A stretch of DNA of 64,000 nt from an uncultured delta proteobacterium (GCA_963840855.1 CAWJBB010000041.1:160001-224000); one strand, 5' to 3'; positions 28,391 to 50,375 are shown, counted from the stretch's first letter. Translations and numbers: made by a program. Notes: generated from the letters alone by a model not told the origin.

Positions 28391-28432
28391 GCGATGCCAG
28401 GATTGAACTGAATTCTCCAACGACTTAATCCT
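28391..28432 (+). repeat. 66-bp cassette-boundary site, copy A (left half only)
   Basis: GCGATGCCAG GATTGAACTGAATTCTCCAACGACTTAATCCT, joined directly to the RBS/ATG of the next gene. Confidence 0.85.
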
Positions 28433-28442
28433 AGAGGTGCAT

Positions 28443-29367
28443 ATGAATTCCAATCTATCGAAATCCGCTGTCGCTACCGGCTTGTCCCTTGTGGCCACCT
28501 CTACGGCATATGCAGCCGACAGTGCAAAGATGGAGGGTGGTAGATGGCGTCAAGTTCGAACACAAGTATGCCGCTGTCAATGATATTCAACTGCACTATC
28601 TCATTGCTGGAGATGGCCGCAAACCGGTGTTGTTGATACACGGATTTCCAGGAGACTGGGGGAACTGGAAGCTCTTGATGGGGAAGCTGGTCAACCAAGG
28701 CTACGCGGCTGTCGTTCCGGATTTTCGTGGGGTAGGCGAGTCCTCCGTCCCGGCCTCCGGTTACGATAAAAAAACAATCGCACAAGACCTGCGTGCGCTC
28801 ATGAATGGACTGGGGTTCTCGGCACCTATAATATTGCCCACCTGTATGCGGCCCAGTTCCGAGGCGAGGTAAAGGAGCTTGTGCTCATGGATTCCTTTCT
28901 GCCGGGGATTCCGGGTTGGGAGCAGGGATACGATGGACGTCCCGGGAAATGGCATTTCCGCTTCTTCGGCGAAACCCATTGCAGTTGGTAAAGGGGCGTG
29001 AGCGCATATATCTGGATATGTTCTGGAATGATTTTGTCGTCCCTGGCAATCCCTCGGTCCCTGAAATCGACAGGGTGGCATTGACCGAAGGCTACGCAAG
29101 GCCGGACCGTATGAAATCCGCATTTGCGCTTTATTTAACCTGGACTACCAACGATGCTCCTGACAATCAGGCTTTCCTAAAGAGAAGCTTGAAGTCCCGG
29201 TCTTGTCGATAGGCGGTGATCATTCGCGTGGCAAGACCTTGGCCGAGCAAATGCCGCAGATTGTGGTAGATCCCCAGTCCTTGATCGTAAAAAACAGCGC
29301 GCATTTTGTACTTGAGGAGAAGACCGAGGAAACGAGCGCTGCGATTTTCAGGTTTTTACAGGATTAA
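28443..29367 (+). pseudogene. Secreted alpha/beta hydrolase (epoxide hydrolase-like), several frameshifts
   Basis: Signal peptide MNSNLSKSAVATGLSLVATSTAYAA; LLIHGFP, PDFRGVGES, GYDKKTIAQD and C-terminal NSAHFVLEE segments lie in different frames. Confidence 0.75.
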
Positions 29368-29563
29368 CTGCAAAGCGTTGATGGCCTTCCGGCGCGTCGC
29401 ATATTACGTTGACAGAGAATTACTTTGCTACCACACAAGAAAAAAATCGAGTTGACAAGGCGAGTCCAGCCGTAATAACGTGCGCGACACTATCTGGGTT
29501 TTTGCTTCAACTCTAGATAAACGCACGACGGTATTTCATCAATCTCGTTAATGAGAGGGAACC

Positions 29564-30803
29564 ATGAAGCGATTTGTATTTAGTATTCTTCTGGTAGGGT
29601 CGTTGTTCACGTTGTTTACCGGCTTGGTAAAAGCCGATGTGATTGCCGACTGGAACGAAAGAGCGGTCGTCGCGGGCGAAAAGGCGCGCGTCGGAAATTT
29701 TCCGACAGCTAGGGCTATAGCGATGGTTCATTTGGCGATGTTCGAGGCGGTCAATTCAATTGAACCCCGTTATATGCATTATCGAGCCCGGTTATCGGCG
29801 GAGCCCGCGGCGTCGCGCGACGCCCGCTGCGGCTAGCGCCGCCCATGCCGTATTGGTGCGCGTGTTTCCCGAACAAGCCGCGGAACTAGATAAGGCGCTT
29901 CAATCGTCACTTGCCACTGTGTCGGATGGTACATCCAAGACACAAGGCGTTGAGCTTGGCCAACAAGCGGGCGCGGCGATCGTCGCCGAACGCCGTGACG
30001 ATGGTTGGGACGCGCCAAACAGCTACCGGCCATACACGGTGGCCGGTAAATACGTTCCTACGGAGTTGCCCATTGGTTACACCGTGGCGAGCGTAAAGCC
30101 ATTTTCACTCAAGACCGGCAATCATCTGCGGCCGCCAGCTCCTTATGCACTCAAAAGCGCGCAGTGGGCCAAAGATTTCATCGAAGTAAAAAAGCTGGGG
30201 GCCAAGACAGGTTCGGCGCGCACGGCGGAACAGACAGATATAGCCCGCTTCTGGGCATTGACAGGACCGGCGACGTACAACCCGGTGGTACGCCAGCTTG
30301 CAGCGGCTAAGGGGCTCGATGTTTTGGACAACGCCCGGTTATTCGCTCTGTTCTCGATGGCAACGGCTGATGCGAGTATCGAAATCTTCGATGCCAAGTA
30401 CGCCTACAACTTCTGGCGTCCAGTGACCGCGATCCGCAACGCAGACTTGGATGGTAATAACGCCACCGAGCGCGATCCGACGTGGGAGCCGTTTATTGCA
30501 ACGCCCATGCACCCTGAATATCCCTGCGCCCACTGTATCGCTCAGGGTAGTGCTGCCAGCGTGCTCGATGCGTTTTTCGGAGACGCGGTGCCGACTTTCA
30601 CAATGACCAGCACGACTGCGCCCGGAGTGACACGCAAATTCTCCAAGCTGTCCGATTACGTTACGGAAGTCGTCAATGCTCGCGTTTACGACGGCGTGCA
30701 CTACCGCACCTCCGGTGAGGTTGGTGCCACCATGGGCCGCAAAAACGGGCAATACGCCGTGCAGAATTACCTAAAGCCCATTGCTCAAGCGGGTGCCCGA
30801 TGA
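29564..30803 (+). CDS. Vanadium-dependent haloperoxidase / PAP2 superfamily protein, secreted; frameshift near 29822
   Basis: Signal peptide, DVIADWN, AKYAYNFWRP, PMHPEYPCAH, ARVYDGVHYR. Confidence 0.85.
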
Positions 30804-30844
30804 TGTGATAGGTTGAAGAAAGCATGACCATCGGTCGCACGCAC

Positions 30845-30940
30845 ATGAAGAAAGTTGCGGTGCAAGCAATTTTGCTTGCAGTAGTACTCCTTATTGCAGT
30901 CATCGCCGAGGCGCACGTGGCGATGCCAGGATTGAACTGA
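30845..30940 (+). pseudogene. Signal-peptide-only remnant of an ABC substrate-binding protein gene
   Basis: MKKVAVQAILLAVVLLIAVIAEAH matches the N-termini of the four intact paralogues, then runs into the 66-bp site and stops. Confidence 0.8.
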
Positions 30941-30995
30941 ATTCTCCGTCTACTAAATCCTGTGAGATTTGTCCGTTGCGTCGTTCAGTTCAATC
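30930..30995 (+). repeat. 66-bp cassette-boundary site, copy B (complete)
   Basis: Perfect 14-bp inverted repeat AGGATTGAACTGAA (30928-30941) / TTCAGTTCAATCCT (30984-30997). Confidence 0.92.
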
Positions 30996-31083
30996 CTACG
31001 GCAAAATCTCTCGATTTTCAGAGCTATGCGAGGGTGTTTCGCTCGTCATGAGTAGCGAATATTTTAGATTGGCAATTTGCGTT

Positions 31084-31112
31084 TTCTCCATCGCACAAAA
31101 TCCCGTGAGATT
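31084..31112 (+). repeat. 66-bp site, copy C (degenerate central part)
   Basis: TTCTCCATCGCACAAAATCCCGTGAGATT resembles the consensus centre TTCTCCnnCGACnnAATCCTGTGAGATT. Confidence 0.55.
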
Positions 31113-31308
31113 CACCGGTCAGACAACCGTCGCTGCTTCACCCAAGGCTTTAGTCCAAAGGGTTAATTGCATCGTTGACGCCACCAACCATCTGAAGTAA
31201 AAAATCAGTTCAGCCGCCGGGGGAGCCTGTTGCGACGGCATAACCCAATCCTGTCATAATTATAGGTTCTCCCCCGACCAACAACTTTGCTTCGGTCTTT
31301 TTGGATTT

Positions 31309-34224
31309 ATGGCAACCCCGACCAAAAAAGGCTCTAAGAATACCACGGCAAAACCGCGCCGCCCGGTGGTGAAGACATCTCAGCCTAAACAAGCGCAAAA
31401 CATTCAGTCATTGCAGCGAAATCTCGATGAGTCACACGAACGGGAAGCGGCGACGAGCGACATTCTTCGCATGATCGCGCGCGCGCAGGGAGACCTCCAA
31501 TCTATCCTGGATGCGACCGCTACGAATGCTGCGAAATTGTGTGATGCGGTGGATGCTGCGGTGTGGCGCGTCGATGGCGATGTGTTACGCCTCGCCGCGC
31601 ACTTTGGGTCGATCCCGATGCTACACGCGCTAGGTGATACTGACAGCATCGATCGGAGCACAGCCACTGGCCGCGCGGTTGTGGAGCGGCAAACAATCCA
31701 TGTCCACGATATGGTAGCAGCGCAAGCTGAGTTTCCGAGAGCTCAAATGCGCGGCGTAATAACGGGAACTCGTACCACGTTGGCGGCGCCGCTGCTACGC
31801 GACGGCAACGTAATCGGGGCTATTCATATTCGTCGACGCGAAGTCTGTCCCTTCACTGATGAGCAAATCAAACTCGTTGAGACCTTCGCCGACCAGGCCG
31901 TCATTGCGATCGAGAACGTGCGGTTGTTTCAAGAATTGAAGGAGTCACTGGAGCAGCAAACTGCGACGAGCGAAATTCTCGGCGTCATCGCGAGTTCGCC
32001 CACCGATATACAGCCTGTGCTAGACGCCGTCGTCAAGAATGCTGCAAAGCTCTGCGAGGCTGACGACGCTTTGATTACTCGCATCGATGGTGATTCCTTG
32101 AAAAGGGTAGCTAATTATGGACCACTGCCCGGGTCGCTGGGCGGAGGTCCGGCCTTCGACCGTGGCTCGATAGCCGGCCGAGCCATCATTGCCCGGCAAG
32201 CCGTTCACATACCTGACCTCGCAACAGAACCAGTGGATGACCTTCCGGCACCACTCGCTAGAAGTATAGGAGTTCGGACCGTACTTGCTACTCCACTACT
32301 GCGTGAGGGTATGCCGATCGGCACGATCATGATCCGTCGGACGGAGGTTCGACCCTTTTCGGAAAAGCAAATCAAGCTCCTCGAAACCTTCGCCGACCAG
32401 GCAGTAATTGCCATCGAAAATGTCCGCTTGTTCAAGGAACTCGGGGAACGCAATGCGGAACTGCGGGAGGCCCTAGAACATCAAACTGCTACGGCCGAGG
32501 TGCTTGGCATTATCAGCCGATCGCCTACGGACGTACAGCCGGTCCTCGATGCCATCGTCGAGAGCGCGGCGCGGGTTTGTGGGATTGATGACGTGCAGCT
32601 GCGACTGCACGAGGGCGACAATATGGTTTCGCGGGCTCATTTTGGTCCCATACCCAGCGGCCGCTTCGAGATCAGCATCGATGCGCCACAGTTTCGCTGG
32701 ATGCGCGAGCATGGCACTCTCCACATTCCCGACGTCCGTACGCAGCGCAATGATTTTCCAACGCTGGGTTCCGACAGCGGCTCGCGCACCTTTTTACTCG
32801 TTCCCCTTCGTCAGCAGGGGGAACACATTGGAGTACTGGCCGCCCGTCGCGGCGAGGTGCGCCCCTTCACCCCGGTGCAGATCAAACTTCTCGAAACCTT
32901 TGCCGACCAGGCGGTGATCGCAATCGAGAACGTGCGGCTGTTCAAAGAGTTACAAGAACGGACGCGCGAATTGATGGAATCGGTGGAGGAGATGAAAGCT
33001 CTCGGAGAAGTCGGCCAAGCAGTCAGCTCCACTTTGGATCTCCAGACAGTCCTCAGTACGATTGTGCGCCACGCTGTCCAGCTTTCTGGAACTAATGGCG
33101 GTGTTATCTATGAATACGATGAAGCTGCTCAAGAGTTTCATCTCAGAGCGAGCGACCGCATGGAGAAAGAAGTGATCGAGGCTCTCCAAACCACTCCAAT
33201 TCGCCCAGGTCAGGGTGCCACCGGGCAAACCGTGAGCGCTCGCGCGCCAGTTCAGGTTTTTGACTTATTGGACGAGCGAGAGATTAGCGGCACCCGAATC
33301 CGGCCGATAATGGCGCGGCTGGGTTATCGATCGTTACTTGCGGTTCCAATTCTGCGCGAGGAGCGGATCATGGGTGCCTTAACCGTCTGGCGTAAGGAGG
33401 TAGGCAACTTTTCACCTGAGATTGTGAACCTTCTTCAGACGTTTGCGACACAGTCCGCCCTCGCAATTCAAAACGCACGCTTGTTCCGTGAGATTGAGAA
33501 CAAGAGCCGCGAGATTGAGACGGCTAACCGGCACAAATCTGAATTTCTCGCCAACATGTCCCACGAGCTGCGCACGCCATTGACCGCCATCATTGGGTTC
33601 TCCGAGGTTCTTTCAGAGAAGGTTTTCGGAGAAATGAATGACAAGCAGAGCGAATATATGGACGATATCGTCTCCTCGGGGCGTCATCTTCTTTCGCTGA
33701 TCAACGACATTCTGGATCTGTCCAAAGTCGAGGCCGGGCGGATGGAATTGGATCTGACAAAGTTTGACATACCAACCGCGATCGACAACGCGCTGATTCT
33801 CATACGAGAACGGGCGACGCGGCACGGTATAACGCTACGGCATACCGTAGACGAGCGTGTGGGCGAAGTCCTCGGTGACGAGCGAAAGTTCAAGCAAATT
33901 CTTTTGAATCTATTATCGAATGCAGTCAAGTTTACTGCGGAAGGTGGACATGTCGACGTTGATGCCGCGTTGACCAACGGAGCGGTAGAGATATCGGTGA
34001 GCGACACGGGCGTAGGCATCGCCCCCGAAAACCAGGAGGCGATCTTTGAAGAATTTCGTCAGGTGGGTACCGACGTTTCCAAGAAGCGCGAAGGAACGGG
34101 TTTAGGGTTGACGCTCACGCGGAAGTTTGTCGAATTGCATGGGGGGAAGATTTGGGTTGAAAGCGCAGTCGGCAAGGGGAGTACATTCACGTTTACTCTG
34201 CCGCTTCAACCAAGAGAGGTTTGA
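31309..34224 (+). CDS. Multi-GAF sensor histidine kinase
   Basis: Four GAF units ending [17 protein letters not shown] or [17 protein letters not shown]; [29 protein letters not shown]. Confidence 0.93.
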
Positions 34225-34604
34225 TGGCCAATGAACTAATACTGATCATTGAGGACAACGAGAAAAACCGTAAGCTCATTCGTGATTTACTTCAGGTCAA
34301 GGGCTACCAGACAATTGAGAGCGAGACAGCGGAGGAGGGGCTAAGACTGGCCGAAGAAAGAAAACCGGCCCTCGTTCTGATGGATATCCAACTCTCTGGC
34401 ATGGACGGCATCGCTGCGATGAAACAGCTTAAAGCTACGCCCGCTACTCGAACTATACCGGTGATGGCGATCACGGCATCGGCCATGACCCACACCCGTG
34501 AATCGATGCTGGATGAAGGATTTGACGGCTATCAGACCAAGCCGTTTAACTTGACCGAATTTCTCGCCGATGTGGGCGAGTTGATCAGTCAAAGTCGCTC
34601 ATAG
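34224..34604 (+). CDS. Single-domain response regulator (DivK/CheY-like)
   Basis: IIEDN, VLMDIQL, AITAS, TKPF; start overlaps the kinase stop. Confidence 0.92.
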   Translation: MANELILIIEDNEKNRKLIRDLLQVKGYQTIESETAEEGLRLAEERKPALVLMDIQLSGMDGIAAMKQLKATPATRTIPVMAITASAMTHTRESMLDEGFDGYQTKPFNLTEFLADVGELISQSRS

Positions 34605-34704
34605 TCAATTCACTTTGCACAACTTCGCCAGAACCATTGGCTCGCGTGTGTCTGAATCGGTATTCGATCCGGAGCAGAACCGCGCGAGGATCTTTTAACC
34701 CTGT

Positions 34705-34770
34705 AATTGAACTGAATTCTCCATCGACTCAATCCTGCGAGATTTGTCCGTTGCGTCGATCAATTCAATC
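34705..34770 (+). repeat. 66-bp cassette-boundary site, copy D (complete)
   Basis: AATTGAACTGAATTCTCCATCGACTCAATCCTGCGAGATTTGTCCGTTGCGTCGATCAATTCAATC. Confidence 0.92.
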
Positions 34771-34884
34771 TTGGGTTAAAAATCTGGTTTTTCCACTCGA
34801 CGGATATCTTTCGCCTTCTGTCGTAAATCCCACTTTCCTTTATCTGTATCCGCGTGATAGATAACGCTCGAAACGAGGTGCGCA
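34771..34884 (+). promoter_or_regulatory. Conserved ~110-bp leader of the SBP genes (other copies at 38089-38194, 40430-40541, 49187-49295)
   Basis: Shared blocks AAAAATCTGG.TTT.CCACTC.ACG.AT, TCGCCTTC.G.CGTAAAT and TCCGCGT; function inferred from position only. Confidence 0.6.
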
Positions 34885-35883
34885 ATGAAGAAAGCTGCGG
34901 TGCCATCAATCCTTGTTGCAGTGGTGTTGCTTGCTCTTGGGGTGATAGCCGAGGCGCAGCAGCCGAAGAAAGTCCCTCGGATAGGGTATCTAGCGACAAG
35001 CGATGCGGCTACTGAGTCCGCCCGTGCCGAGGCAATTCGGCTGGCTCTGCGTGAGCTTGGCTACATAGAAGGACAGAACATCGCCTTCGAGTACCGATAT
35101 GCGGAGGGGAAGCGCGATCGGTTCCCCGAGCTTGCAACCGAGCTCGTGCGTCTCAAGGTTGATGTCATCGTGGTAGCAGGAGGCGACCTACTGGTCCGGC
35201 CGGTCATGAACGCGACCAAGACGATTCCCATCGTTATGATAGGCGTTGGGGGCGATCCTGTCGAGGACGGCCTAGTTGAAAGCCTTGCCCGTCCCGGCGG
35301 CAACGTCACCGGTCTTACTCTCCTTTACAGAGAACTAAGCGGGAAGCGACTGGAGCTGCTCAAAGAAGCCGTCCCAAAAGTTGTCCGTGTCGCGGTTGTC
35401 TACGATCCGGGCAATCCGCGCAGTGTACGCGATGTGAAAGAGGTTCTTCCAGTCGCGGCGCATGCGCTGGGATTGACTGTTCGGTCTTGGGAGGTACGAG
35501 ATGCGGACGGTTTTGAAAAGGTATTCGCTGCGATAAACAAGGAGCGCCCGGATGGACTCTATGTGCCCGGTGGGGGCTCGATAATCCTTGCTAACCAAAA
35601 ACGGATCGCGGGCCTTGCGTTAAAGAGCCGGCTACCGTCGGTGTATAACAGCAGAGAATTTGTAGATGCCGGCGGGCTCATGTCCTACGGGCCGGACATC
35701 GCAGACAGCTACCGGCGCGTCGCGTATTACGTGGACAGGATTCTGAAGGGAGCCAAGCCTGCCGATCTGCCGGTGGAGCAGCCGACGAAGTTCGAGCTGG
35801 TGATAAATCTCAAGACGGCGAAGCATATCGGCCTGACGATTCCGCCGGAGGTGCTTGCGCGGGCGACCAAGTTGATCAAGTAA
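34885..35883 (+). CDS. ABC transporter substrate-binding protein (ABC_sub_bind family), paralogue 1
   Basis: Signal peptide ending AEAQQ, GYIEGQN, SLARPGGNVTG, GGLMSYG, KPADLPVEQPTKFELVINLKTA. Confidence 0.93.
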   Translation: MKKAAVPSILVAVVLLALGVIAEAQQPKKVPRIGYLATSDAATESARAEAIRLALRELGYIEGQNIAFEYRYAEGKRDRFPELATELVRLKVDVIVVAGGDLLVRPVMNATKTIPIVMIGVGGDPVEDGLVESLARPGGNVTGLTLLYRELSGKRLELLKEAVPKVVRVAVVYDPGNPRSVRDVKEVLPVAAHALGLTVRSWEVRDADGFEKVFAAINKERPDGLYVPGGGSIILANQKRIAGLALKSRLPSVYNSREFVDAGGLMSYGPDIADSYRRVAYYVDRILKGAKPADLPVEQPTKFELVINLKTAKHIGLTIPPEVLARATKLIK

Positions 35884-36052
35884 ATTGGTGTCTTCCTCTG
35901 GAATCGAAAAGATAAAACGTGCTTACCCGCTGCGCATTCTACAGGTAGACTTATTAGTTCAGCGGGAACAAGTTGATTAACAAGGTGATTCACTTCTCTA
36001 TGATACCGCTATACGTAAAACTGCCCAAACCACCCGAGCAGGAGGAAAAGTC

Positions 36053-36505
36053 ATGGCCGTGAAAGTGCTTGAGCTACATCACCACGGAATCCGGGTAGGC
36101 CCCACACCCGAGCAGCTGAGCAAGGCCCTCACCTTTTACCGCGACGTGCTGGGACTGACTCCAGATCCCGGACGCCCAAAGATTCCGGGCATCCCGGGAT
36201 ACTGGATGGATTTGGGTCACACACAGATTCACCTGATGGGAGTTAGCGGTCCTTCCAAGTACGCAAAGGGAGAACGGCAGGATCCGACGCTGACCCATGT
36301 GGCACTGGCGGTGCCGGACGTCCAGGAGGCCAAGCGCGAGCTGGACCGGCTCGGCGTCAAATACTGGACGTTGGCCGGCGTAGTGGGGCCGCATATCGAA
36401 CAGATCTTCATGGATGACCCGTTCGGCAACATGATCGAGCTGCACCAAATCGGCACCTGTCGTTGCAACAGAGAGAGCGCTGAAGGAACTGAAACCGTTG
36501 ATTGA
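36053..36505 (+). CDS. VOC (glyoxalase/bleomycin resistance) family protein
   Basis: AGGAGG RBS; LHHHGIRV, FYRDVLGL, QIHL, HVALAV, DPFGNMIEL. Confidence 0.9.
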   Translation: MAVKVLELHHHGIRVGPTPEQLSKALTFYRDVLGLTPDPGRPKIPGIPGYWMDLGHTQIHLMGVSGPSKYAKGERQDPTLTHVALAVPDVQEAKRELDRLGVKYWTLAGVVGPHIEQIFMDDPFGNMIELHQIGTCRCNRESAEGTETVD

Positions 36506-36696
36506 CCGGCTAACAAGCGGCTAGCGCAAACTGCGAGAAAAGTACGCCGTTGTCATATCAATCGGCGTGAGGTTCGAGGTCTGCCGGAGCGTGAGACAAA
36601 TCAAGCCTTCGCGTCACCCCATAGACCTTTTCGTTTATGTCCCGCTCCTCGCCATGAGGTATTCTAGGCAGTTTATTGAAGCAGGAGAGAAAAGCC

Positions 36697-38001: not shown

Positions 38002-38070
38002 CTCTGCTGGAACGCAAGTAAACAATCAGAGACCCATGTAGTATGCACTTAAATGCCGCATCTAACTGAC

Positions 38071-38088
38071 GCGTCGTTCAGTTGAATC
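38071..38088 (+). repeat. 66-bp site, copy E (right end only)
   Basis: GCGTCGTTCAGTTGAATC followed by the conserved SBP leader. Confidence 0.75.
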
Positions 38089-38194
38089 TCAGGCTAAAAA
38101 TCTGGGTTTCCCACTCAACGAATACTTTTCGCCTTCTGTCGTAAATGGCACTTTTCTCTGCTACCTTCCGCGTAATACGCAAATGGTGTCTGCA

Positions 38195-39190: not shown

Positions 39191-39207
39191 CCACGCGGCG
39201 ATGCCAA

Positions 39208-40313: not shown

Positions 40314-40363
40314 GGTGTCACGGCATTCGCGCGGCAGCTCACTATTTGCGTTAGCCTCCTTCA

Positions 40364-40429: not shown

Positions 40430-40541
40430 TCAAGGTGGCCCTGGACTTCTTAATTGACGAATCCGTGTCGCCTTCCGCCGTAAATCACCTTTTCTTTATT
40501 ACCGTCCGCGTGCTTAGTAACGTCCCAGGACTGGGTGGGCA

Positions 40542-41536: not shown

Positions 41537-41563
41537 TGAAAGAAGACCTACCGAGAGCGCCAG

Positions 41564-41604
41564 GATTGAACTGAATTCTCCGTTCAACCAATCCTGTGAG
41601 ATTT
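41564..41604 (+). repeat. 66-bp site, copy H (left two-thirds)
   Basis: GCCAG GATTGAACTGAATTCTCCGTTCAACCAATCCTGTGAGATTT; 27 bp after the SBP stop. Confidence 0.88.
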
Positions 41605-41723
41605 AAGCGTACGCCGCCGCTTGCGGCCCAGGCCGAACCTATGATGCTCATGGGCGTAAAACACGTGCAGGTGAGGCGCGACCTTAAAAATCTACGGCCG
41701 CTTGCAACTGAAAGGAGTTATCG

Positions 41724-43130
41724 ATGCTTAGAGTTGAGCAGAATGATCGGTTAACACAGGTGGGGCCGGGAACGCCGCTGGGAGAGCTCATGCGGCGGTA
41801 CTGGCAGCCAATCGCCGTGGCTTCGGAACTAAAGGAGAATCCTACCAAGTCCATTAAGCTCCTGGGAGAATGTTTAGTGCTGTACAAAGACCGGCAAGGC
41901 CGGTTGGGCCTGATCGATGAGGCCTGCGCGCATCGGCGCGTCAACCTGGTTTACGGCATTCCGGAGAATGAGGGCCTGCGTTGCCCTTATCATGGTTGGC
42001 TGTTTGACCAGCAGGGACGGTGTCTGGAAATGCCCGCGGAGGCCCCGGAAAGCACGTTCAAAAACCGGATCAAGATGAAGGCATATCCCGTTCAGGAGCT
42101 GGGAGGATTGATCTTTGCGTACCTGGGGCCGGAGCCCATACCGTTGGTACCGCGCTGGTATCCATTCGTGCGCGATGACGTGATCCGTGATGTCGGGTGG
42201 GCTGTGGTGCCGTGCAATTGGTTGCAGATCATGGAAAATTCTCTCGACCCGGTGCACGGAGAATACCTGCATCGCTATTTCACCAACTACGTATTGGAGC
42301 GGTTGGGTTATATCGAGGATAAAGGCGATCTCCGCGGCCCGGGCGGCGCGCCCGGGAGAGCGCACGGGAAAACGCCGGCAGACTACTGGCGCACGAGCGC
42401 CAAGGTGGTGCACCATAACAAGGTCGGCTTCAACGTTTTCGAGCACGGCATTACCAAACACCGGCTGCTGCAGGGAGAATCCGAGGAGACTTCCCCCTCT
42501 TGGCGCATCGGCCATCCGATCCTGTTTCCCAACTTTGAGCACGGCGCCGGCGGCGGCGGGTTCCAAATCCGCGTCCCGATGAACGATACCAACACTTACT
42601 ATCTCTGGTACAACTGCCACCCCGCATCTAGGGAAGAGGCTGCGGCGCAGAGGCCTGAGGACATTCCGGTCTATCGGGTGCCTCTGCCGGGCGTCGACGA
42701 GCGCGGGATACCCGTATGGGAGCGGTTCGACAACAACAGCGGCCAGGACAACATGGCGTGGGTTTCTCAGGGCGAGCGCATGCAGCGCAACCTAGAGAAT
42801 CTCGGCGAATCGGACGCCGGCATTATCCTGTATCGGCGGCTGCTCAACGAGCAGATCCAGATCGTCGAGGATGGCGGCGAGCCGATGAATGTCTTCCGCG
42901 ACCCGGCCAAAAATCAATGCGTGACGTTCCCATACGAAGGGGCTGAGGGAGCCGGTGATGAAACCGGTGATGTGGTTTACGGCTATGCCCGCCGCACCGA
43001 GAGACTTTCCAGCGGCACTTCCGGTAAGTATAGCCCGATCAATCTGAAGCGGGCAGAGGAGGCGGGCTCGCCGCTGCCGAAGCCGGTGCCGCCGATTAGC
43101 GGGGGCATTACTGTAACCTCGCCCAAATAG
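41724..43130 (+). CDS. Rieske non-heme iron oxygenase alpha subunit (phthalate 4,5-dioxygenase / LigX-like)
   Basis: VGPGTPLGELMRRYWQP, CAHR...CPYHGW Rieske motif, ENSLDPVHGEYLH, QD, LGESDAGI. Confidence 0.9.
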   Translation: MLRVEQNDRLTQVGPGTPLGELMRRYWQPIAVASELKENPTKSIKLLGECLVLYKDRQGRLGLIDEACAHRRVNLVYGIPENEGLRCPYHGWLFDQQGRCLEMPAEAPESTFKNRIKMKAYPVQELGGLIFAYLGPEPIPLVPRWYPFVRDDVIRDVGWAVVPCNWLQIMENSLDPVHGEYLHRYFTNYVLERLGYIEDKGDLRGPGGAPGRAHGKTPADYWRTSAKVVHHNKVGFNVFEHGITKHRLLQGESEETSPSWRIGHPILFPNFEHGAGGGGFQIRVPMNDTNTYYLWYNCHPASREEAAAQRPEDIPVYRVPLPGVDERGIPVWERFDNNSGQDNMAWVSQGERMQRNLENLGESDAGIILYRRLLNEQIQIVEDGGEPMNVFRDPAKNQCVTFPYEGAEGAGDETGDVVYGYARRTERLSSGTSGKYSPINLKRAEEAGSPLPKPVPPISGGITVTSPK

Positions 43131-43222
43131 CCGCGCGTACAATCGGCTGTCGTTCGCCAACCCGCTTTAAAAAAGTCGGGTTGCCAACTGCATCGAATCC
43201 GCGCTCGCCACAGGAGACCGCC

Positions 43223-43370
43223 ATGGAAGAAACTGCTGCTGTTCCCGAAGCGCAAAGTTTCCAGCTCAAGACCCCTTGCTGCCAGAAGGGCGGACCAACA
43301 AAGTCCTCGCCCAGACGGATTCGCTCAAGCTCCGCATCAAGGTGTACGCCGAAGGTGGCGAAAATGGCTC
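43223..43370 (+). pseudogene. Truncated, frameshifted cupin-domain gene fragment
   Basis: AGGAG RBS, MEETAAVPEAQSFQLKTP then LPEGRTNKVLAQTDSLKLRIKVYAEGGENG; breaks off where the metal-binding HxH would be expected. Confidence 0.5.
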
Positions 43371-43562
43371 GCGTGCCCCTGAACTGATCGAACTGTTCAA
43401 GGCTTTTTCCGGCGGCGCGCCGCTGCCGCCGCAGTTAGAAATCAAAGCCACGCGCTCCGAAGAAAAACCCGCGCACAGAAATGGCCGGGCCCCACAAGGC
43501 GGCGCCCGCCATTCCCGACGGAAGATCTCAGTTGCTCTCGTAGCTAATCGGCCGTATCGAAA

Positions 43563-44201
43563 CTAGGACTTCTTCTTGGGCAGCATCTCGGCGGGTATTT
43601 GGCGCGGGCCGATACTCTCGTGGTATTTATTGGTCTCCAGATCATACCTGCCGTGAAGGTTGGACGGTATGCCGTCCTTGGCGCTGCGGATGATCACGGC
43701 AGCCGTTCGCTCGCCGACATTCACCTCGATGTGGATGTCGCCCGGCTTCGCCAGATGGATATCCCCGGCTGCGGCCACGTAATCGGCGGTCTTTCTCACT
43801 TCGGCGTACTCGGGTCTGGTTCCATCATCAACGCGTTCGTACTGCACAATCCGCTCGTGCCCGTCCAGCAGCCCATAGGCGGTATAGATGCGCCCATGAT
43901 CGTGCGCGTGCTTTGGCTCGGTCTGGCGCCGGCCGCCCTCATGGATCTGGCCGTTCACGACAAACCCATAGTCGGGATCTTCGTAGAAGAGCAGGTTACC
44001 GCCGCGGCGCTCGCCCGAGCTCGGAATCGAACTGGGAACCGGCCACTGTCGCGAGGCCTCCCGCACCTCCGGATCCGCCAGCAGCTCCGCCAGGATCGGC
44101 CGCAACGCGACCCAGCGTTTATCCACGTCGGGCTCGCGCGCGAATAGCTCCCGCGTCTTGCTGACGAATCGTTCCAAAGCATCCTGGCCTCTGGTTTCCA
44201 T
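43563..44201 (-). CDS. Cysteine-dioxygenase-like cupin protein
   Basis: LFYEDPDYGFV, HDHG..YTAYG, YERVDDG, GDIH. Confidence 0.75.
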   Translation of the reverse strand: METRGQDALERFVSKTRELFAREPDVDKRWVALRPILAELLADPEVREASRQWPVPSSIPSSGERRGGNLLFYEDPDYGFVVNGQIHEGGRRQTEPKHAHDHGRIYTAYGLLDGHERIVQYERVDDGTRPEYAEVRKTADYVAAAGDIHLAKPGDIHIEVNVGERTAAVIIRSAKDGIPSNLHGRYDLETNKYHESIGPRQIPAEMLPKKKS

Positions 44202-44230
44202 GACTGAATCTCCTCCCTGTTGAAGTGGAT

Positions 44231-45414
44231 CTAAGCCTGTGGCTGCCCGTTCGCTTGGCCGGCGTTAACCGCCGGGGCGTCGCTGACGTTATAGAAACGA
44301 GCGCAGTTATCCCACAGGATCTTCCGTTTGTCCTCGTCCGAAAACGGTAGCTTGAGAAAGCTCTCCGTGGCATGCGGATAGCGCGAGTCGCCGTGGGGAT
44401 AGTCGGTCGAATAAACCAGGTTGTCGTTGCCGAGAAAGTCGATCGTGTAGCGCGCCGGGGTTTCGTCCGGCTCGACCGACGCGACGCACTGGCGTTTGAA
44501 GTACGCGCTCGGCGCATGGTCAGCTCGCTCATGTCGAGATCACCTTCCAACTCGTAAGCTTCGTCGAGGCGCCACAAGAGCCACGGCAGCCACGAGCAGT
44601 TGGCCTCGAGAAACGCGACCTTCAAGGTCGGGTGCCGCTCGAGGATACCGCCGCCCAGAAAGCTGCCGACGCCGAACATCTGCCCGATGGGCTGGCCGTA
44701 GGCGCGCTGCATCCCCGACGGCGAGCCGAACCAGAACCTTGTCAGTTGCGGGACGCTCGATGCTGTCGCCTGATGAAGTCCGAGCGGGATCTGCAGCCCC
44801 TCCAATGCATCCCAGAGCGGCTCGTAGTACGTGTCGTGCCAGGCTTTGCCATTTACGATATTGGATCTAAGAAAGACCGCCTTGAAACCCAGCTCTTCGA
44901 CCACCCGGTGCGCTTCCGCGACCGCGTCGTTGATGTCATACACCGAGATCATGCCGGCGCCGAGCATACGCCGCGGATCGGTTTGGCAGAGGCCGTGGAG
45001 CCAGTCGTTGTACGCGCGCGCGATCGCCGCGGCAAAGCGGGCATCCGCGACGCGGGCGCCGCCGTCCGGCCCGACCAGCACGTTCAAGCCCCGGCTCGGG
45101 AACATCACCGCGACATCGAGTCCTTCCACATCCATCGCCTCGAGCTGGACCTCGCCGCTCCAACCGCGCGCGGCGTCGCCGCGGTACAGTGCCTGGTTGC
45201 GCTCGTAGTTACGGCCCTGCCGCGTCCTTCTCCGGATCGGCGGGCCATTGACATTCTGGTCCAGGAAGGTGATGCGTAGGTCGCGCACATTTTCGGACAA
45301 GACACCCCGCGGCGCGATCGCGCGGAACTCCGCGGCAATATAGCGCTCCCACAGATCGGGAGGCTCCATGACGTGCATGTCGCTGTCGAAAACTCTAAAT
45401 CCATTCTTGGCCAC
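44231..45414 (-). CDS. Amidohydrolase_2 family protein; frameshift near 44510
   Basis: DSDMHVMEP, YNDWL, LGLH, FLEANCSW; the shifted frame continues YFKRQC...STDYPHGD...ILWDN to TAG at 44231. Confidence 0.88.
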
Positions 45415-45945
45415 TTAGTTTTACCCTCCTTTCCTGCGCGCTGCTGCAAACCAGTTCGCCAGATGCACCGGTTTGCGCGGTATCCGGCTTTGGGACCGCC
45501 TTTTTGCGAAACCAAATAGTCTTCGACATAGGCCAGAGGGTCCACCATGCGATGCTGCCAGGCGCCGACGAGTCGATCCATTTTCATCGCCTCCGGCAAG
45601 GTGAGATTCGCTCCCATCTGCACCGCGATCTTGGCGGAGGCGAGCGCCGCCTGTGCAAAGCCGCCGCAGCTCAATGATGCCATGCGTCGTTAAGTCGCGA
45701 AAAAGGTTCACGTCCTTTCCTCCTCCACTGCCTTGAACCTGATGGGTGACTGGTCCGGACAAGTCCAACACCGACTGATTGAAAACACAGGCGCGTAACT
45801 TAGAGATCCTGACAAGAGAGCTGAGCGAGAGGGAATAAAGCAATTTATTTCCTACAAAATATCGTTGCCTCTTGATTTGCTTCTAATCGGCGCCCGCGTC
45901 TTGGTGCCAGTCACGAGCATGGATGCCAGGCTCTGGCCGGCGGCC

Positions 45946-47106
45946 TCATTGCTTCAGCCGTGGGCAGAAGCGCAGGGCGTTCGCACTCAGGATGTTGGTC
46001 TTCGCGTGCTCGGAGATTTTCTGCTCCTTGATGTTGGGGACGCCGTCGGGCCAGCAGGTCCCCCCGTGGGGGTAATCCGTGGCGAAAAGAAATAAGTGGT
46101 CGCCTAGCGCCTCGACGGCGTATGCGATGTGCTCCTCGTCCGACTCGATCGAGCAGAAAAGTTGGCCCGAAGCCAGGATCTCCGAAGGCTTCCGCTTCAA
46201 AAACGGCGTCTCGTAGGAGCGCGGCTTGTAGCTCCCCTCGAATTTCTCGAACATGTAGGGCATCCAGCCGCCGAATGCTTCGAAGATGCCTATCCGCAGC
46301 TTCGGGAAGAGGTCGAAGACACCGCCGCCAATGAGACCCGCAAGGGCGTACTGGCCGCCCCAGCTGTGGTAGATCGAGTTCGGCGCATTGACCCAGGGGG
46401 TAAGGGGCGGGCGCTTGAACCCGCCATGGACCCACACAGGCAGATCGAGTTCTTGGGCCAACCCGAAGATTGGCCGCAGCCGCGGGTGGTCAAGCATGGC
46501 CCCGTCGGGGCAGGCCCGCGGGACGAACGGTCCCACGTAATGCCTGTCGTTCGTCGCCCAGTAGTTGATCTGGCTAAGCGTCTCCTCGATGTCGCGCAAG
46601 TTGGAGTTGCTGACCCAGCGCAGCCGTCCCTCGGATCCGGAACAGTAGCCGGACATGAAGCGATGGTACGCCCGCTGCAGCGCGCTCTCGAACCCGATGT
46701 CGTCCAACATGCAGTAGCCGTCGGACTGGCTGGAGAACATCACGCTGATTTCGATACCCGCCGTGGTCATGTCTTTCAGGCGCGGGGCGGGATTCCAATG
46801 GCAAGATGGATCGATCTCCCGGCCGGTATTGCTGACCTCGCGGCCGGGCCCGCCCGGGCGCTCCTCCCGCGGCGGCGCGTCAAAGGCGTCGTAGATGCCC
46901 ATTGGGTGGCCGGGCAGCCGCGGCCAGAGCACTTCGCCGAGGCCGACGTCACCGGTCCGCTTCTGGTTGGCTTTGACTGCCGCGCTGAAGCGCGCGTATT
47001 TGTCACGATACTCGGGGTCGATGTTGCCCTTGTAGGTCTTGTCGAGGGCCCAGTACTCGCGGATGTGGGAATCCGCGTCGATCACGATGTGGTCGTTGAA
47101 AGCCAT
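45946..47106 (-). CDS. Amidohydrolase_2 family protein
   Basis: DADSH, VWVH, GGVFDLFPKLRIGIFE, ATDYPH. Confidence 0.9.
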   Translation of the reverse strand: MAFNDHIVIDADSHIREYWALDKTYKGNIDPEYRDKYARFSAAVKANQKRTGDVGLGEVLWPRLPGHPMGIYDAFDAPPREERPGGPGREVSNTGREIDPSCHWNPAPRLKDMTTAGIEISVMFSSQSDGYCMLDDIGFESALQRAYHRFMSGYCSGSEGRLRWVSNSNLRDIEETLSQINYWATNDRHYVGPFVPRACPDGAMLDHPRLRPIFGLAQELDLPVWVHGGFKRPPLTPWVNAPNSIYHSWGGQYALAGLIGGGVFDLFPKLRIGIFEAFGGWMPYMFEKFEGSYKPRSYETPFLKRKPSEILASGQLFCSIESDEEHIAYAVEALGDHLFLFATDYPHGGTCWPDGVPNIKEQKISEHAKTNILSANALRFCPRLKQ

Positions 47107-47109
47107 AAG

Positions 47110-48297
47110 CTAACTCCGCTCTTTTCTGTCAGGACGCGGGATGCCGAGAAGCTGAAGAATGTTGTCTGCCTGCATCTTGCGCCGCTCGTCGGCCGGAACC
47201 CCACCCATCTGCCGGTCCAGCACCTCGCGCGAGCGCGGCCAGTACGTAACCACGTGGGGGAAGTCGCTGCCCCAGATAATGTGGTCCACCCCGACCTCGT
47301 GGCGCAGCTTGATGCCGATAGGGTCGTCGTAGAAGCCCCAGTAGGCATGCTCCTTGATGTACTCGCTGGGGCGCCGCTCAAGCCGACGGATGCCGAAGTG
47401 CCGCTCGGCCCAGAAGTGATTCTTGTCGTACTCGGCATCCATCTGTTCGAGGTAAAACGAGATCCAGCCGACGTTGTTCTCGGCCCAGTAGATTTTGAGC
47501 TTGGGGAAGCGGTTCCACACGCCGGCAAAGAGCATCTGGCAGGCCGTTAGCGACCCGCAGCGCGACGGGTTGGCGTGCCGGTAGAGCCGATTGATGAAAT
47601 CGTCTTCGCCGTTCCAGTCGACGGGCTGCTTCGGGTAGTCGAAGATTTTGCCGTCGCTGCCGAAAGATATCGTCGTATGGATTGTGAGCGGCACCTCAAG
47701 ATCGATGGCCGCGGCCCAGAAGCGATCGTCCTCCGGAGTGGGGTAAGGTTTACCGGAAGGGAAGCTTTTAAGAGCGGTGGCACGGATCCCGGTGCGCTTG
47801 GACCGCTCTAGCTCGGCAATCTTGGTGTCGATGTCGCCGGCGGGGAGCATCGCCACGCCGAAGAGTCGGTCCGGGAAAGCGGCGCAATAGTCGGCGAGGT
47901 AGTCGTTGTACGCCCGCACCATCGCGAGATATGCCTCCTGGTCCTTGACTCGCATGCCGTGGGTGGCTGACGTTCCCGGGAAGAGCAGCTCGGCGTCGAC
48001 GCCGTCCTGGTCCTGCTCGCGCACGCGCTGCTCGGGCGAGCCGGATCCGATGGCCGTTGCGTACTCGAATCCAACCATGGGATCGAAGTCTTCAGGCGTG
48101 TGGCCCGCGTAGCTGCCGGTGCCGCCGAAATACTGCGAGCCTTCGGCGGAGACGATGACTTCGCCGCCCGTGGCGAGCTTGACGCGCTTGGGAGTCAGGT
48201 CACGGAACTTTTTCGGAACGCGGTCGGTCCAGAAATCCGCGGGGACCTGCAGGTGGCTATCTCCCGATACCATGCGATAAGTGCGGACCAGATGCAT
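47110..48297 (-). CDS. Amidohydrolase_2 family protein
   Basis: SGDSH, DGVDAELLFP, LTIH, RFPKLKIYWAE, WGSDFPH. Confidence 0.9.
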   Translation of the reverse strand: MHLVRTYRMVSGDSHLQVPADFWTDRVPKKFRDLTPKRVKLATGGEVIVSAEGSQYFGGTGSYAGHTPEDFDPMVGFEYATAIGSGSPEQRVREQDQDGVDAELLFPGTSATHGMRVKDQEAYLAMVRAYNDYLADYCAAFPDRLFGVAMLPAGDIDTKIAELERSKRTGIRATALKSFPSGKPYPTPEDDRFWAAAIDLEVPLTIHTTISFGSDGKIFDYPKQPVDWNGEDDFINRLYRHANPSRCGSLTACQMLFAGVWNRFPKLKIYWAENNVGWISFYLEQMDAEYDKNHFWAERHFGIRRLERRPSEYIKEHAYWGFYDDPIGIKLRHEVGVDHIIWGSDFPHVVTYWPRSREVLDRQMGGVPADERRKMQADNILQLLGIPRPDRKERS

Positions 48298-48458
48298 ACT
48301 CCTCGTAACGATAGCAGGAAGTTCCTTTTGAGGTCAGCGGCACGGGAAATCAGAATTTAGTGCCAGCTCGGGATCGAGAGCTCCCAATAAGGGAACTGGC
48401 CCCGCTCCCTTTCTACGGGCGCGAGAATATCCGATAAATCGGACGTCTGTCAAATAAT

Positions 48459-49019
48459 TTGCCGGTTGTTGCCGCAGCCCGCCGATCGGTAGGGTTCGAT
48501 CCACTGAAGTGGATGTACAACGAGGAGCGCCGCGGCTACGACTTCGTGGAGCAGGAGCTGCTCGAGCGGTCGATCGTCCCGTCCCGGCGAACGCCGAAGC
48601 GCTCCAGCTCGCCAAGGTCTCAAGCTCGACTTCGAGCCCATCAAGCAATGGGCGATCCAAGCCTCGATTACTGGAGCGAAGTGAACGGGGTGTATGTCCC
48701 GCGCTCCATCCTCGAAAACGCCGCCAAGATCGGAGACGGCGAACGGGTGTTCATTCTTTTTCCGAAGAACCATCTCGACAGCATCCTGACCAGTTCGGCG
48801 AAATCGGAAAAAACAGAACCGGTTCCTGAGGCTTCCGCCGCGATTCAGTGGCCGACGGAACCGCGCTCGGCGCTCGACAAAATCCGCGACGCAATCAAGG
48901 ATTTGGCTGGCGCGATCTCCAAAGACAAGCGCGCCGACACTCCGGCTGAACCGGAGAAGAAAGAGGCCAACGAAGGCGCGGTGCTCGTTCTCTCCGAAGA
49001 TGAGGAAAAGAGCGAGTGA
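48459..49019 (+). CDS. Hypothetical protein (start uncertain, possibly a fragment)
   Basis: Open frame with protein-like C-terminal two-thirds; no recognised motif. Confidence 0.45.
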   Translation: MPVVAAARRSVGFDPLKWMYNEERRGYDFVEQELLERSIVPSRRTPKRSSSPRSQARLRAHQAMGDPSLDYWSEVNGVYVPRSILENAAKIGDGERVFILFPKNHLDSILTSSAKSEKTEPVPEASAAIQWPTEPRSALDKIRDAIKDLAGAISKDKRADTPAEPEKKEANEGAVLVLSEDEEKSE

Positions 49020-49120
49020 TCTAGGAAGAGGGGTGGATGTCGGCTGAGCGAGAACAGAAACAAGCGGTTATCGAACTGGCAGCATTGCACCGCACCGAGG
49101 GCGCCAGCGGTTAAACCTAC

Positions 49121-49186
49121 GATTGAACTGTATTCTCCTACGACCTAATCCTACAAGACGGGACTGAGGCGTCGATCAGTTCAATC
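49121..49186 (+). repeat. 66-bp cassette-boundary site, copy I (complete, divergent centre)
   Basis: GATTGAACTG...CAGTTCAATC 10-bp perfect inverted ends; same 66-bp length. Confidence 0.9.
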
Positions 49187-49295
49187 TCAAGCTAAAAATC
49201 TGGTTTTTCCACTCGACGAATGCCTTTCGCCTTCTGTCGTAAATCTCCGTTTCCTCTAGTAAGGTCCGCGTGATACATAACGAACCGTGTGTGTA

Positions 49296-50282
49296 ATGAG
49301 GAAAGCTGCAGTCTTATCAATCTTGTTTGTGGTGGTACTGCTTGATGTTGCAGTCATAGCCGAGGCGCAGCCGCAGGCAAAGGTTTCTAAGATTGGGTGG
49401 CTCTCAGCCCGTCCCGCTTCAAACAGAATTGTCGGGCAAGAGGTACTCGTGCGCATGCTCCGTGATCTCGGCTATGTTGAAGGCAAGAACATCGCTTTCG
49501 AGTATCGATATGCGAATAATAAACTCGACCGGTTTCCCGCCCTGGCCGATGAGTTGGTTCGTCTTAAAGTTGACGTTCTCCTCACGCCTGGGACCCCTGG
49601 CGCCCTAGCCCTCAAGAACGCTACCAAAACGATCCCCATCGTTTTTACAGATGTGACTGATCCTGTTGCGGCTGGGCTGGTTGCTAGCTTAGCGCGGCCT
49701 GGGGGAAACATCACTGGGTTCAGCAGCATAGAGGCGGTGTTGGCGGGCAAACGGCTGGAGTTACTCAAGGAAGCCGTTCCCAAGATTTCACGCGTTGCCG
49801 TGTTGTGGAATCCGCATGATCCAAGCTCCGCGCAGCAATGGAAAGAAAGCCAACTGGCGGCACGAGAACTGGGTCTGCAACTTCACTCCATGGAGGTCAG
49901 CAGCGCCGATCAATTCGAGAGCGCGTTCAAGGAGGCAAATCAAGTCCGCAGCTCTGCGCTCTTCGTGGTATCGAGCGCGTTGGCCGTTGCTAATCAAAAA
50001 CGGATCGCGGACCTAGCGATAAAAAATCGGTTGCCGGCGATATACACTCGCGGAGATCTTGTTGACAGCGGTGGCTTGATGTCCTACGGACCCGACCAAG
50101 CCGAACGCTTCAGGCGTGTCGCGGTTATGGTCGACAAGATTCTCAAAGGAACCAAGCCCGCCGACATTCCTGTCGAACAACCGACGAAGTTTGAGTTCGT
50201 GATCAACTTAAAAACGGCGAAGCAGATCGGCCTGACGATCCCACCCAACGTGCTGGCGCGGGCCGGTAAGGTGATCAAATGA
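49296..50282 (+). CDS. ABC transporter substrate-binding protein (ABC_sub_bind family), paralogue 4
   Basis: Same family motifs (SLARPGGNITG, GGLMSYG, PVEQPTKFEFVINLKTA). Confidence 0.93.
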   Translation: MRKAAVLSILFVVVLLDVAVIAEAQPQAKVSKIGWLSARPASNRIVGQEVLVRMLRDLGYVEGKNIAFEYRYANNKLDRFPALADELVRLKVDVLLTPGTPGALALKNATKTIPIVFTDVTDPVAAGLVASLARPGGNITGFSSIEAVLAGKRLELLKEAVPKISRVAVLWNPHDPSSAQQWKESQLAARELGLQLHSMEVSSADQFESAFKEANQVRSSALFVVSSALAVANQKRIADLAIKNRLPAIYTRGDLVDSGGLMSYGPDQAERFRRVAVMVDKILKGTKPADIPVEQPTKFEFVINLKTAKQIGLTIPPNVLARAGKVIK

Positions 50283-50309
50283 TCGAAGAAAACCCAGCAG
50301 CGATGCCAG

Positions 50310-50375
50310 GATTGAACTGATTTCTCCGACGACTCAATCCTGTGAGAATTGTCCGTTGCGTCGTTCAATTCAGTC
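50310..50375 (+). repeat. 66-bp cassette-boundary site, copy J (complete)
   Basis: GCGATGCCAG GATTGAACTGATTTCTCCGACGACTCAATCCTGTGAGAATTGTCCGTTGCGTCGTTCAATTCAGTC; 27 bp after the SBP stop. Confidence 0.92.

Follow-up and report, generated by a model that had tools for sequence, protein, structure and literature searches.

A composite 66-nt hairpin repeat tied to PF04392 binding-protein genes in accessory islands of an uncultured deltaproteobacterium: a possible REP-like element and recombination hot spot

INTRODUCTION

The window described here is a stretch of 64,000 nucleotides from an uncultured delta proteobacterium (GCA_963840855.1, CAWJBB010000041.1:160001-224000; contig C41:160001-224000 below). 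Between 28.4 and 50.4 kb, it contains an array of a 66-nt hairpin-forming element that separates unrelated gene modules. The locus raises the question of whether this element is the recombination site of a cassette system, as the initial annotation had proposed together with a recombinase acting in trans, or a structural repeat at whose copies genes are shuffled passively. The element was not demonstrated to be a new dedicated cassette system. The reading that we tentatively favor, with a probability of roughly 40%, is a lineage-specific structural hairpin resembling repetitive extragenic palindromes (REPs) and bacterial interspersed mosaic elements (BIMEs), or the REP doublets known as REPINs, which is tied to gene units of substrate-binding proteins (SBPs) and is a passive hot spot for recombination. 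The window's own genome, G000, is a metagenome-assembled genome (MAG) of 7.1 Mb in 93 contigs, 94% complete and 8% contaminated; G001 and G002 are its sister genomes.

RESULTS

A co-oriented 66-nt element in the window

Matches to the left end of the element, GATTGAACTGAATTCTCC, with up to three mismatches allowed, were detected at eight positions in the window (28401, 30930, 34705, 39208, 40364, 41564, 49121, and 50310), and matches to the right end at six (30978, 34753, 38071, 40412, 49169, and 50358). All eight and all six were on the plus strand, compared with 0.06 and 0.15 matches expected from shuffled sequences. Five complete and five partial copies were present from 28401 to 50375, and nhmmer at E ≤ 10 yielded no match in 1-28400 or 50376-64000, in agreement with the about ten same-strand copies described in the initial annotation. 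Each complete copy (30930, 34705, 40364, 49121, and 50310) measured exactly 66 nt, as had been stated, and the 14-bp perfect inverted repeats claimed for the copy at 30930 were present, with 30928-30941 pairing with 30984-30997. A degenerate copy had also been placed at 31084; a match exists there, but it is weak. When folded as single strands and compared with shuffled sequences, the copies at 30930 and 34705 gave z values of -4.4 to -5.4, while the copy at 49121 was weakly better than its shuffles (z -1.6 to -2.1). An Rfam search of the window at the gathering threshold detected the tRNA only, and the element matched no family.

The 66-nt site is a composite of two imperfect palindromes, each about 30 nt long and inverted relative to the other, mini-A (positions 1-31) and mini-B (positions 37-66), joined by a 5-nt linker that is usually TGTGA. 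Mini-A consists of GATTGAACTGAA, TTCTCC, and a decayed copy of the right arm, and mini-B of a decayed left arm, GCGTCG, and TTCAGTTCAATC. The arm GATTGAACTGAA/TTCAGTTCAATC is common to both minis, and pairing between the outer arms gives a long hairpin. Left-only copies are a lone mini-A, and right-only copies a lone mini-B. The copies in the window and the SBP genes beside them are as follows.

28401-28437, plus strand: left-only copy (mini-A); a remnant of an SBP 3' tail lies before it at 28376-28400
30845-30929, plus strand: SBP gene remnant, signal-peptide codons fused to an SBP 3' tail (repeat families D8 and D10)
30930-30995, plus strand: complete 66-nt element, mini-A + TGTGA + mini-B
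31081-31116, plus strand: weak degenerate partial copy (nhmmer E = 0.44, model positions 10-44)
34705-34770, plus strand: complete element, with the palindrome extending over 34693-34781 (TTTTAACCC...GGGTTAAAA)
34885-35883, plus strand: PF04392 SBP gene (Pfam E 3.6e-44)
38063-38088, plus strand: right-only copy (mini-B), running on into an SBP leader
38183-39190, plus strand: PF04392 SBP gene (Pfam)
39208-39242, plus strand: left-only copy (mini-A), 17 nt past the SBP stop, right part degenerate
40364-40429, plus strand: complete element (left- and right-end matches, nhmmer)
40535-41536, plus strand: PF04392 SBP gene (Pfam)
41564-41606, plus strand: left-only copy, model positions 1-43, after the SBP stop
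49121-49186, plus strand: complete element with a variant center (TACAAGACGG...)
49287-50282, plus strand: PF04392 SBP gene (Pfam)
50310-50375, plus strand: complete element (left- and right-end matches, nhmmer)

Pfam agreed with the following of the unrelated modules that had been described between the sites: alpha/beta hydrolase, PAP2/VCPO (the haloperoxidase), GAF histidine kinase, response regulator, glyoxalase/VOC, FAD monooxygenase, metallo-beta-lactamase, Rieske, and the four PF04392 SBPs. The metallo-beta-lactamase-fold gene appeared to be split into overlapping open reading frames (ORFs) at 39319-39891 and 39888-40313, with a Pfam match in the first only, and may represent a frameshift or a pseudogene.

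Pairing and conservation of the element

Copies in G000 were counted by nhmmer at E ≤ 1 with a profile built from the five complete copies. The 95 copies comprised 42 full, 33 left-only, 19 right-only, and 1 middle copy, so that half-sites were the majority (52/95); six copies were perfect or near-perfect 30-nt minimal hairpins (12-6-12). Stand-alone minis paired internally at 7.9 and 7.8 of 12 positions, whereas the inner arms within full sites paired less (6.8 and 6.2 of 12) and the outer arms paired instead. Better internal pairing of stand-alone minis would be expected if a hairpin were selected in every context. Both inner arms had decayed in full sites, and matching was found only between the outer arms, 42 nt apart.

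Covariation across genera was determined from a set of 44 copies, to which other genomes and MAG contigs contributed 41. In the outer stem, 15 pairs had changed on both sides compared with 10.3 in shuffles (a value reached in 1 of 500), with relatedness among the copies inflating the counts. Pair 12-68 was CG in 16 copies, UG in 10, UA in 9, and in another state in 9. The TTCTCC and GCGTCG segments were conserved, unpaired, and asymmetric. Among 11 intact units, mean pairwise identity was 0.80 for mini-A and 0.76 for mini-B, compared with 0.62 for the coding sequence, 0.61 for the tail, and 0.53 for the leader. The element is under hairpin selection, old, and widespread.

Association with PF04392 binding-protein genes

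Mini-A typically lay about 17-27 nt past an SBP stop codon, connected to it by a conserved tail, and often preceded unrelated genes; mini-B was continuous with a conserved leader of about 100 nt ahead of an SBP start. An SBP 3' end was found within 80 nt upstream of 16 of the 42 full and 17 of the 33 left-only copies in G000, and an SBP start within 330 nt downstream of 17 full and 9 of the 19 right-only copies. Many of the remaining copies adjoined SBP remnants, such as that at 30845-30929 in the window. An independent set of 80 metagenome contigs carrying 131 elements demonstrated 79 same-strand SBP adjacencies compared with one element with an opposite-strand SBP within 360 nt, a modal element spacing of 1.05-1.2 kb, and co-orientation in every contig with more than one element (36/36). 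One exception was the MAG contig L042, where the element and the SBP genes were on opposite strands. The layout found in G000 recurred in arrays of other genera (G043, G064, and G047).

The gene unit has mini-B and the leader upstream of the SBP gene and the tail and mini-A downstream; with its two flanks so placed, tandem units rebuild the full 66-nt site between genes. Other tandem SBP arrays, on G000 contigs C6, C32, C34, C30, and C87 were also co-oriented and carried no element save one flanking right-only copy on C30, indicating that tandem duplication alone suffices for co-orientation.

The PF04392 profile matched 139 ORFs in G000; 56 were of full length, and many contained frameshifts. 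Many of these genes were split into two to five adjacent ORF fragments, which could be real pseudogenes or assembly frameshifts, the two being indistinguishable here.

Copy number and distribution

The copies in G000 formed about 13 clusters, on contigs C27, C35, C41, C46, C50, C53, C61, C65, C69, C75, C77, C85, and C93, with a few singletons besides, and the strand was uniform within every contig carrying copies. By a covariance-model scan of the genome and its relatives, 33 of the 60 genomes of the uncultured family other than G000 carried the element, in 16 of 23 genera counting that of G000; G000 was the richest, with 49 covariance-model matches at E ≤ 0.001. At least 80 soil-metagenome contigs contained the exact 18-nt left end; the element is common in soil. 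The closest SBP loci belonged to MAGs titled Deltaproteobacteria or Syntrophobacter(aceae). Contigs with both the element and SBP genes were also binned in Pyrinomonadaceae, Binatia, Verrucomicrobiia, and Blastocatellia MAGs (loci L042, L053, L044, L030, and L014), representing either mis-binned short contigs or cross-phylum transfer. Keyword searches of the literature yielded no description of the element or of PF04392-tied repeats, which is not proof of its being unpublished.

Accessory islands and module junctions

The whole array was located in DNA specific to G000. Contig C278 of G001 matched window positions 27184-28384 and then, 72 nt on, the tRNA at 58983-59078 (99%), and contig C328 of G002 matched 26008-28384, followed by 6.2 kb of other DNA before 58852-59077. 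With the locus near-empty in G001 and holding different DNA in G002, window positions 28385-58982 are accessory DNA.

28385-58982, no strand assigned: accessory segment specific to G000, holding the whole array (comparison with G001 and G002)
58983-59072, plus strand: tRNA gene (Rfam), the right border of the accessory segment

A fragment of an Xer-like tyrosine recombinase was observed at 59465-60070, just 3' of this tRNA. G001 and G002 share no window DNA past the tRNA, and a second island may therefore sit on that side.

The genes in the arrays included 47 SBP ORFs, SBPs of a second type, GAF kinases and response regulators, and enzymes of various kinds, and about 71% of the coding capacity was on the element strand (38,837 vs. 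16,151 amino acids by a crude ORF picker). Some SBP genes were interrupted by insertion sequence (IS) copies, among them a 2.69-kb IS at C85:105125-107817, with at least seven copies at 99-100% identity, and a 1.53-kb IS at C35:23245-24773, with three copies.

The initial annotation had proposed a comparison of related genomes for breakpoints inside the site. The left breakpoint relative to the sister genome was instead 16 nt before the first element, within the SBP-tail remnant and outside the site; duplicated modules within G000, by contrast, did end at it and had different neighbors at each copy. C69 64111-66462 was identical (100%) to C85 102579-104930 and ended at the final base of the right arm (position 66), and C46 104631-107782 matched C75 18693-21844 at 99.3% identity and ended at element coordinate 67, one base past the right arm. 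A further module on C85 began directly after mini-A position 31, its copy on C93 being without the element. Apparent module breakpoints in the element fell at positions 19-21, 30-32, 48-50, 56, 61, and 66/67; because the element copies are all alike, the true crossover points cannot be fixed. The junction pattern fits recombination at a short repeat and does not demonstrate a single crossover point.

Public sequencing reads from 24 runs were searched, and none contained more than 0.23 of the sampled words. Contigs from runs X1, X3, X6, and X17 on 30800-50500 had joints that were mainly cross-mapping between SBP paralogues and element copies; such joints have no bearing on excision or empty sites, either way.

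Comparison with integrons

An alternative that we consider possible, though unlikely, is that the element is an atypical attC-like site in arrays resembling attC-site clusters that have no integron-integrase (CALINs), with the genome's IntI or an IntI/Xer-like recombinase acting in trans and with SBP units as cassettes. The element is imperfectly palindromic and similar to attC in size, with AAC...GTT in the arms, a 5' arm longer than the 3' arm, a variable center, and minimal forms, and it occurs in co-oriented arrays with modules of about 1.2 kb. Its arm ends, ATTGAAC and GTTCAAT, each have one mismatch to RYYYAAC and GTTRRRY. The initial annotation had reported that no IntI was present; this was true of the window, but an IntI was detected in G000 on contig C1 (C1:45987-46880), scoring 442 bits to TIGR02249, above the curated cut-off. 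No repeat array or cassettes were adjacent to it (In0-like), and sections of PMC4889954 describe In0 and CALIN as co-occurring in genomes. The 353-aa IntI ORF was beside a cluster of four other tyrosine-recombinase genes (L090, C1:42291-46880). A partial IntI was also observed at C21:55442-55882, and an attC-like hairpin at C21 52376-52476.

True cassettes were present within the arrays. A cassette of 680 nt, with boundaries between G and TT and a 124-nt attC, was found in the array on C50 (65545-66225) and, at 97.6% identity, on C58 (60680-61360), where there is no element. The C58 copy was followed by another GTTATGTG start, and a classical cassette array is suggested on that contig. The 124-nt attC, used as a search seed, yielded only its own two copies in G000. 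In the three-gene module shared by C69 and C85, textbook attC-like hairpins lay between the genes (GCCTAAC...GTTAGGC and GCCCAAC...GTTGGGC); canonical attC-like hairpins were located at C69 66716-66773, C69 65425-65497, C85 103544-103616, and C27 176955-177035. An attC R' box (GTTARCN) was found 4-9 nt ahead of the element in C50, C27, and G051; the case in C85, with an 11-nt spacer and without R'', was less clear. The duplicated modules that end at ...GTTCAATC would also fit this alternative.

Against it, 52 of the 95 copies are half-sites, and mini-B stays with the downstream SBP leader, which is not expected from crossover at R'. The conserved 100-nt leader of SBP units is also unlike typical promoterless cassettes. 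Judged against the attC scheme that parts of PMC4889954 describe, together with general knowledge of attC sites, the R/UCS/L geometry (R boxes, unpaired central spacer, L boxes) was absent: the element has 11-14 contiguous pairs, three of them extra after AAC, followed by a one-sided bulge of 7-8 nt, and the inner CGAC/GTCG pairing was broken in 10 of 25 copies.

IntI and the element did not co-occur convincingly. Both were present in 16 of the 60 genomes, the element only in 17, IntI only in 12, and neither in 15 (odds ratio about 1.2), the tallies including unpublished genomes (G009 for IntI, G015 and G060 for the recombinase described below). Six of the seven genomes with at least eight element copies had IntI, but in these six the listed elements were on contigs other than that of IntI except on C7 of G043, where about 125 kb separates the two; no element was detected within 20 kb upstream of the G002 IntI, and IntI was found in 0 of the 80 metagenome contigs. 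Our own attC scan, requiring AAC...GTT ends and at least 6 of 7 R-box pairs and folding with DNA parameters, gave one array match compared with 2.1 expected at the strict setting, an insensitive scan that missed the 124-nt attC of the 680-nt cassette. At relaxed settings, 25 matches compared with 11.6 expected and 39 compared with 20.2 were obtained, partly the element itself and an SBP-internal palindrome.

TTGAAC was also considered as an integron core. Palindromes of 9-mers with this motif lie near IntI in G002 and G018, but they belong to a dispersed REP-like family, with 580 clusters of at least three motifs in G000, and the integron-core link was dropped. This second, far commoner repeat consists of tandem 9-mers, (GTTCAAnnn)n ... 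(nnnTTGAAC)n, forming long palindromes whose ends match RYYYAAC/GTTRRRY by chance. It was observed upstream of IntI in the same two genomes and in the window at 4451-4514, 20489-20540, 26988-27020, and 28170-28258.

Tyrosine recombinase and IS91-type unit

The minis could instead be recognition hairpins of a second cassette system, distinct from classical integrons, whose trans-acting enzyme would be an Xer/IntI-like recombinase without the IntI-specific insert or a partner IS91-type Y2 transposase, in arrays that would also accept attC cassettes. Gene units with mini-B at one end and mini-A at the other would be excised and reinserted at the hairpin, giving rise to the co-oriented arrays. We regard this as rather doubtful. 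A tyrosine recombinase of 279 aa, Xer/IntI-like and scoring under every NCBIfam cut-off, was encoded 174 nt from the last element of the array on C35. The next gene encodes an IS91-family Y2 transposase (PF04986; in G051 also Zn_Tnp_IS91), which makes the recombinase the upstream ORF of an IS91-type unit and not an array integrase. Homologues of the recombinase in other genera demonstrated 84-94% identity, suggesting recent horizontal spread. The element was carried by 15 of the 21 genomes having the recombinase and by 18 of the 39 without it, a weak co-occurrence confounded by kinship and genome size. Neither IntI nor the Xer-like recombinase co-occurs convincingly with the element.

The IS91-type unit (C35:32316-34658; L091 2317-4659) is about 2.3 kb long and has inverted ends, GGACTAAA(C/G)CG. 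In G000, G023, and G062, the region upstream of the recombinase was fused to element positions 1-56 (…GCGTCGTT joined to GGACTAAACCGC); in G004, it was joined to the element's reverse complement, at the corresponding place in the arm (…GGAGAATT joined to GGACTAAACCGC). More distant homologues had AGTTGAACTAAACCGC at the junction position. Passages of PMC13181058 describe insertion of the IS91 family at GTTC-like tetranucleotides, ends whose imperfect palindromes are subterminal and adjacent to GTTC, and co-mobilization of DNA beside terIS by one-ended transposition in 1-14% of events. The element is a target or neighbor of IS91-type elements, and it is possible that these elements move array DNA.

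A further alternative, which we judge improbable, would make the minis themselves the ends of non-autonomous HUH (His-hydrophobic-His) elements with SBP cargo, moved in trans by IS91-family Y2 or IS200/IS605-type Y1 transposases, or would have the array DNA carried by one-ended rolling-circle transposition. The junctions above and the presence in array spans, which make up 3.7% of the G000 genome, of 5 of its 13 Y2_Tnp matches are in its favor; the arms contain GTTC/GAAC, and strict co-orientation would fit strand-specific single-strand mobility. However, the ends of the IS91-type unit (GGACTAAACCG...) are unlike the arms, no Y1 gene was flanked by arms, Y2 genes were found in 0 of the 80 metagenome contigs, and the element is carried by nearly half of the recombinase-free genomes (the 18 of 39 above). 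The three array Y2 genes next to elements (C65, C77, and C85) were fragments, and alignment of the DNA between these remnants and the nearby elements demonstrated no shared unit. No conserved target motif was seen beside the half-sites of G000.

The weakest alternative, in which one transcription factor coregulating the SBP genes would have the arms as its operator half-sites and the hairpin would be a by-product of the 12-6-12 inverted repeat, is very improbable: arm sequence is conserved, the 12-6-12 minimal forms resemble dimer operators, mini-B lies about 100 nt upstream of SBP starts, and symmetric arm changes would fit co-evolution with a dimeric protein, but mini-A lies past stop codons and often before unrelated genes, TTCTCC and GCGTCG are asymmetric, and the matching of only the widely spaced outer arms in full sites favors nucleic-acid pairing over a dimer operator.

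DISCUSSION

We tentatively interpret the element as a REP/BIME-like structural hairpin tied to SBP units. The hairpin would act on the transcript, as a 3' stabilizer or as a terminator-insulator between genes each with its own promoter. Being short, repeated, and hairpin-prone, its DNA would also be a passive hot spot where recombination, homologous or illegitimate, takes place and mobile elements insert, and modules may thereby be shuffled without a dedicated recombinase. Of the cassette system first proposed, a structured, co-oriented site at the boundaries of accessory modules was retained; the half-sites, the tie to SBP genes, and the scattered breakpoints speak against the remainder. The REP-like element, which had been listed as an alternative, fits the anatomy best, although the copies are clustered and co-oriented instead of scattered.

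Several observations weigh against the REP-like hairpin. The two duplicated modules ending at the right-arm edge look site-specific, and so does the IS91-type unit, which abuts either arm at one same point, between TT and CAGTTCAATC. Integron cassettes within the arrays and R' boxes near copies are unexplained by passive decay. Covariation, which had been named as a check on the element, was absent within G000, where observed values lay inside the shuffle range, so that it is confined to the compensatory changes of the outer stem across genera. Wobble intermediates at pair 12-68 were symmetric (U-G 10 vs. C-A 9), and such near-equality indicates no RNA strand preference. A scan of 34500-41800 detected neither a T-run resembling a terminator nor a match to a sigma-70 promoter at the sites. 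Unlike REPs, which are dispersed, the about 95 copies are grouped into about 13 co-oriented arrays, and they have no GTAG tag; CGTC is present inside GCGTCG, in the loop rather than at the unit end. As for a link to REP-associated tyrosine transposases, arms at real-copy level were found within 1.2 kb of 0 of the 10 Y1_Tnp loci of G000.

The element marks the gain, loss, and rearrangement of a very large orphan family of transporter binding proteins and of catabolic modules. If it is no more than a REP-like hairpin, it is a clean natural example of repeats bound to a single gene family, and it can usefully mark hypervariable islands in fragmented MAGs. Should it be a true recombination site, gene capture of the cassette type would reach further than classical integrons; this question is made directly testable by the canonical cassettes interleaved in the arrays and by the IS91-type junctions.

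Among known systems, pdif sites are XerC/D sites of 28 bp (11-6-11) on Acinetobacter plasmids, with alternating orientation. Like these recombinase sites, the element is short and splits accessory genes into modules; compared by geometry only, it differs in being 66 nt long, strictly co-oriented, and chromosomal. With IS91/ISCR elements (ISCR, IS common regions), by the traits that parts of PMC13181058 describe, it shares subterminal imperfect palindromes beside GTTC and, potentially, one-ended transposition carrying neighboring DNA, and Y2 transposase genes and remnants are enriched in element arrays. It differs in that the ends of the resident IS91-type unit are unlike its arms and that no intact mini-bounded unit encodes a transposase.

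With integron attC sites and CALINs, the element shares co-oriented arrays of imperfect palindromes between short accessory modules, AAC...GTT, a variable center, an In0-like IntI in the genome, and real cassettes interleaved with its copies. Unlike them, it consists mostly of half-sites, lacks the UCS, L-box, and extrahelical-base geometry, is neither close to IntI nor co-occurring with it, and has a right half that belongs to the leader of the next gene.

REPs occur after binding-protein genes of enterobacteria (malE and hisJ), an arrangement that the proposed transcript role of the hairpin would resemble, and REPs are IS insertion targets. The element differs from REPs in being confined to the flanks of one paralogous gene family. 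REPs, as portions of PMC3733652 describe them, are 20-40 bp long, often form opposite-orientation pairs folding into larger structures, lie mostly downstream of coding regions, and plausibly act in RNA; REP/BIME palindromic units are likewise extragenic and mostly just past coding regions in what sections of PMC3733652 and PMC3337134 report. The element resembles REPs, BIMEs, and REPINs in having imperfect palindromic units of 20-40 nt that occur singly (33 + 19 copies) or as inverted pairs with a short spacer (42 copies).

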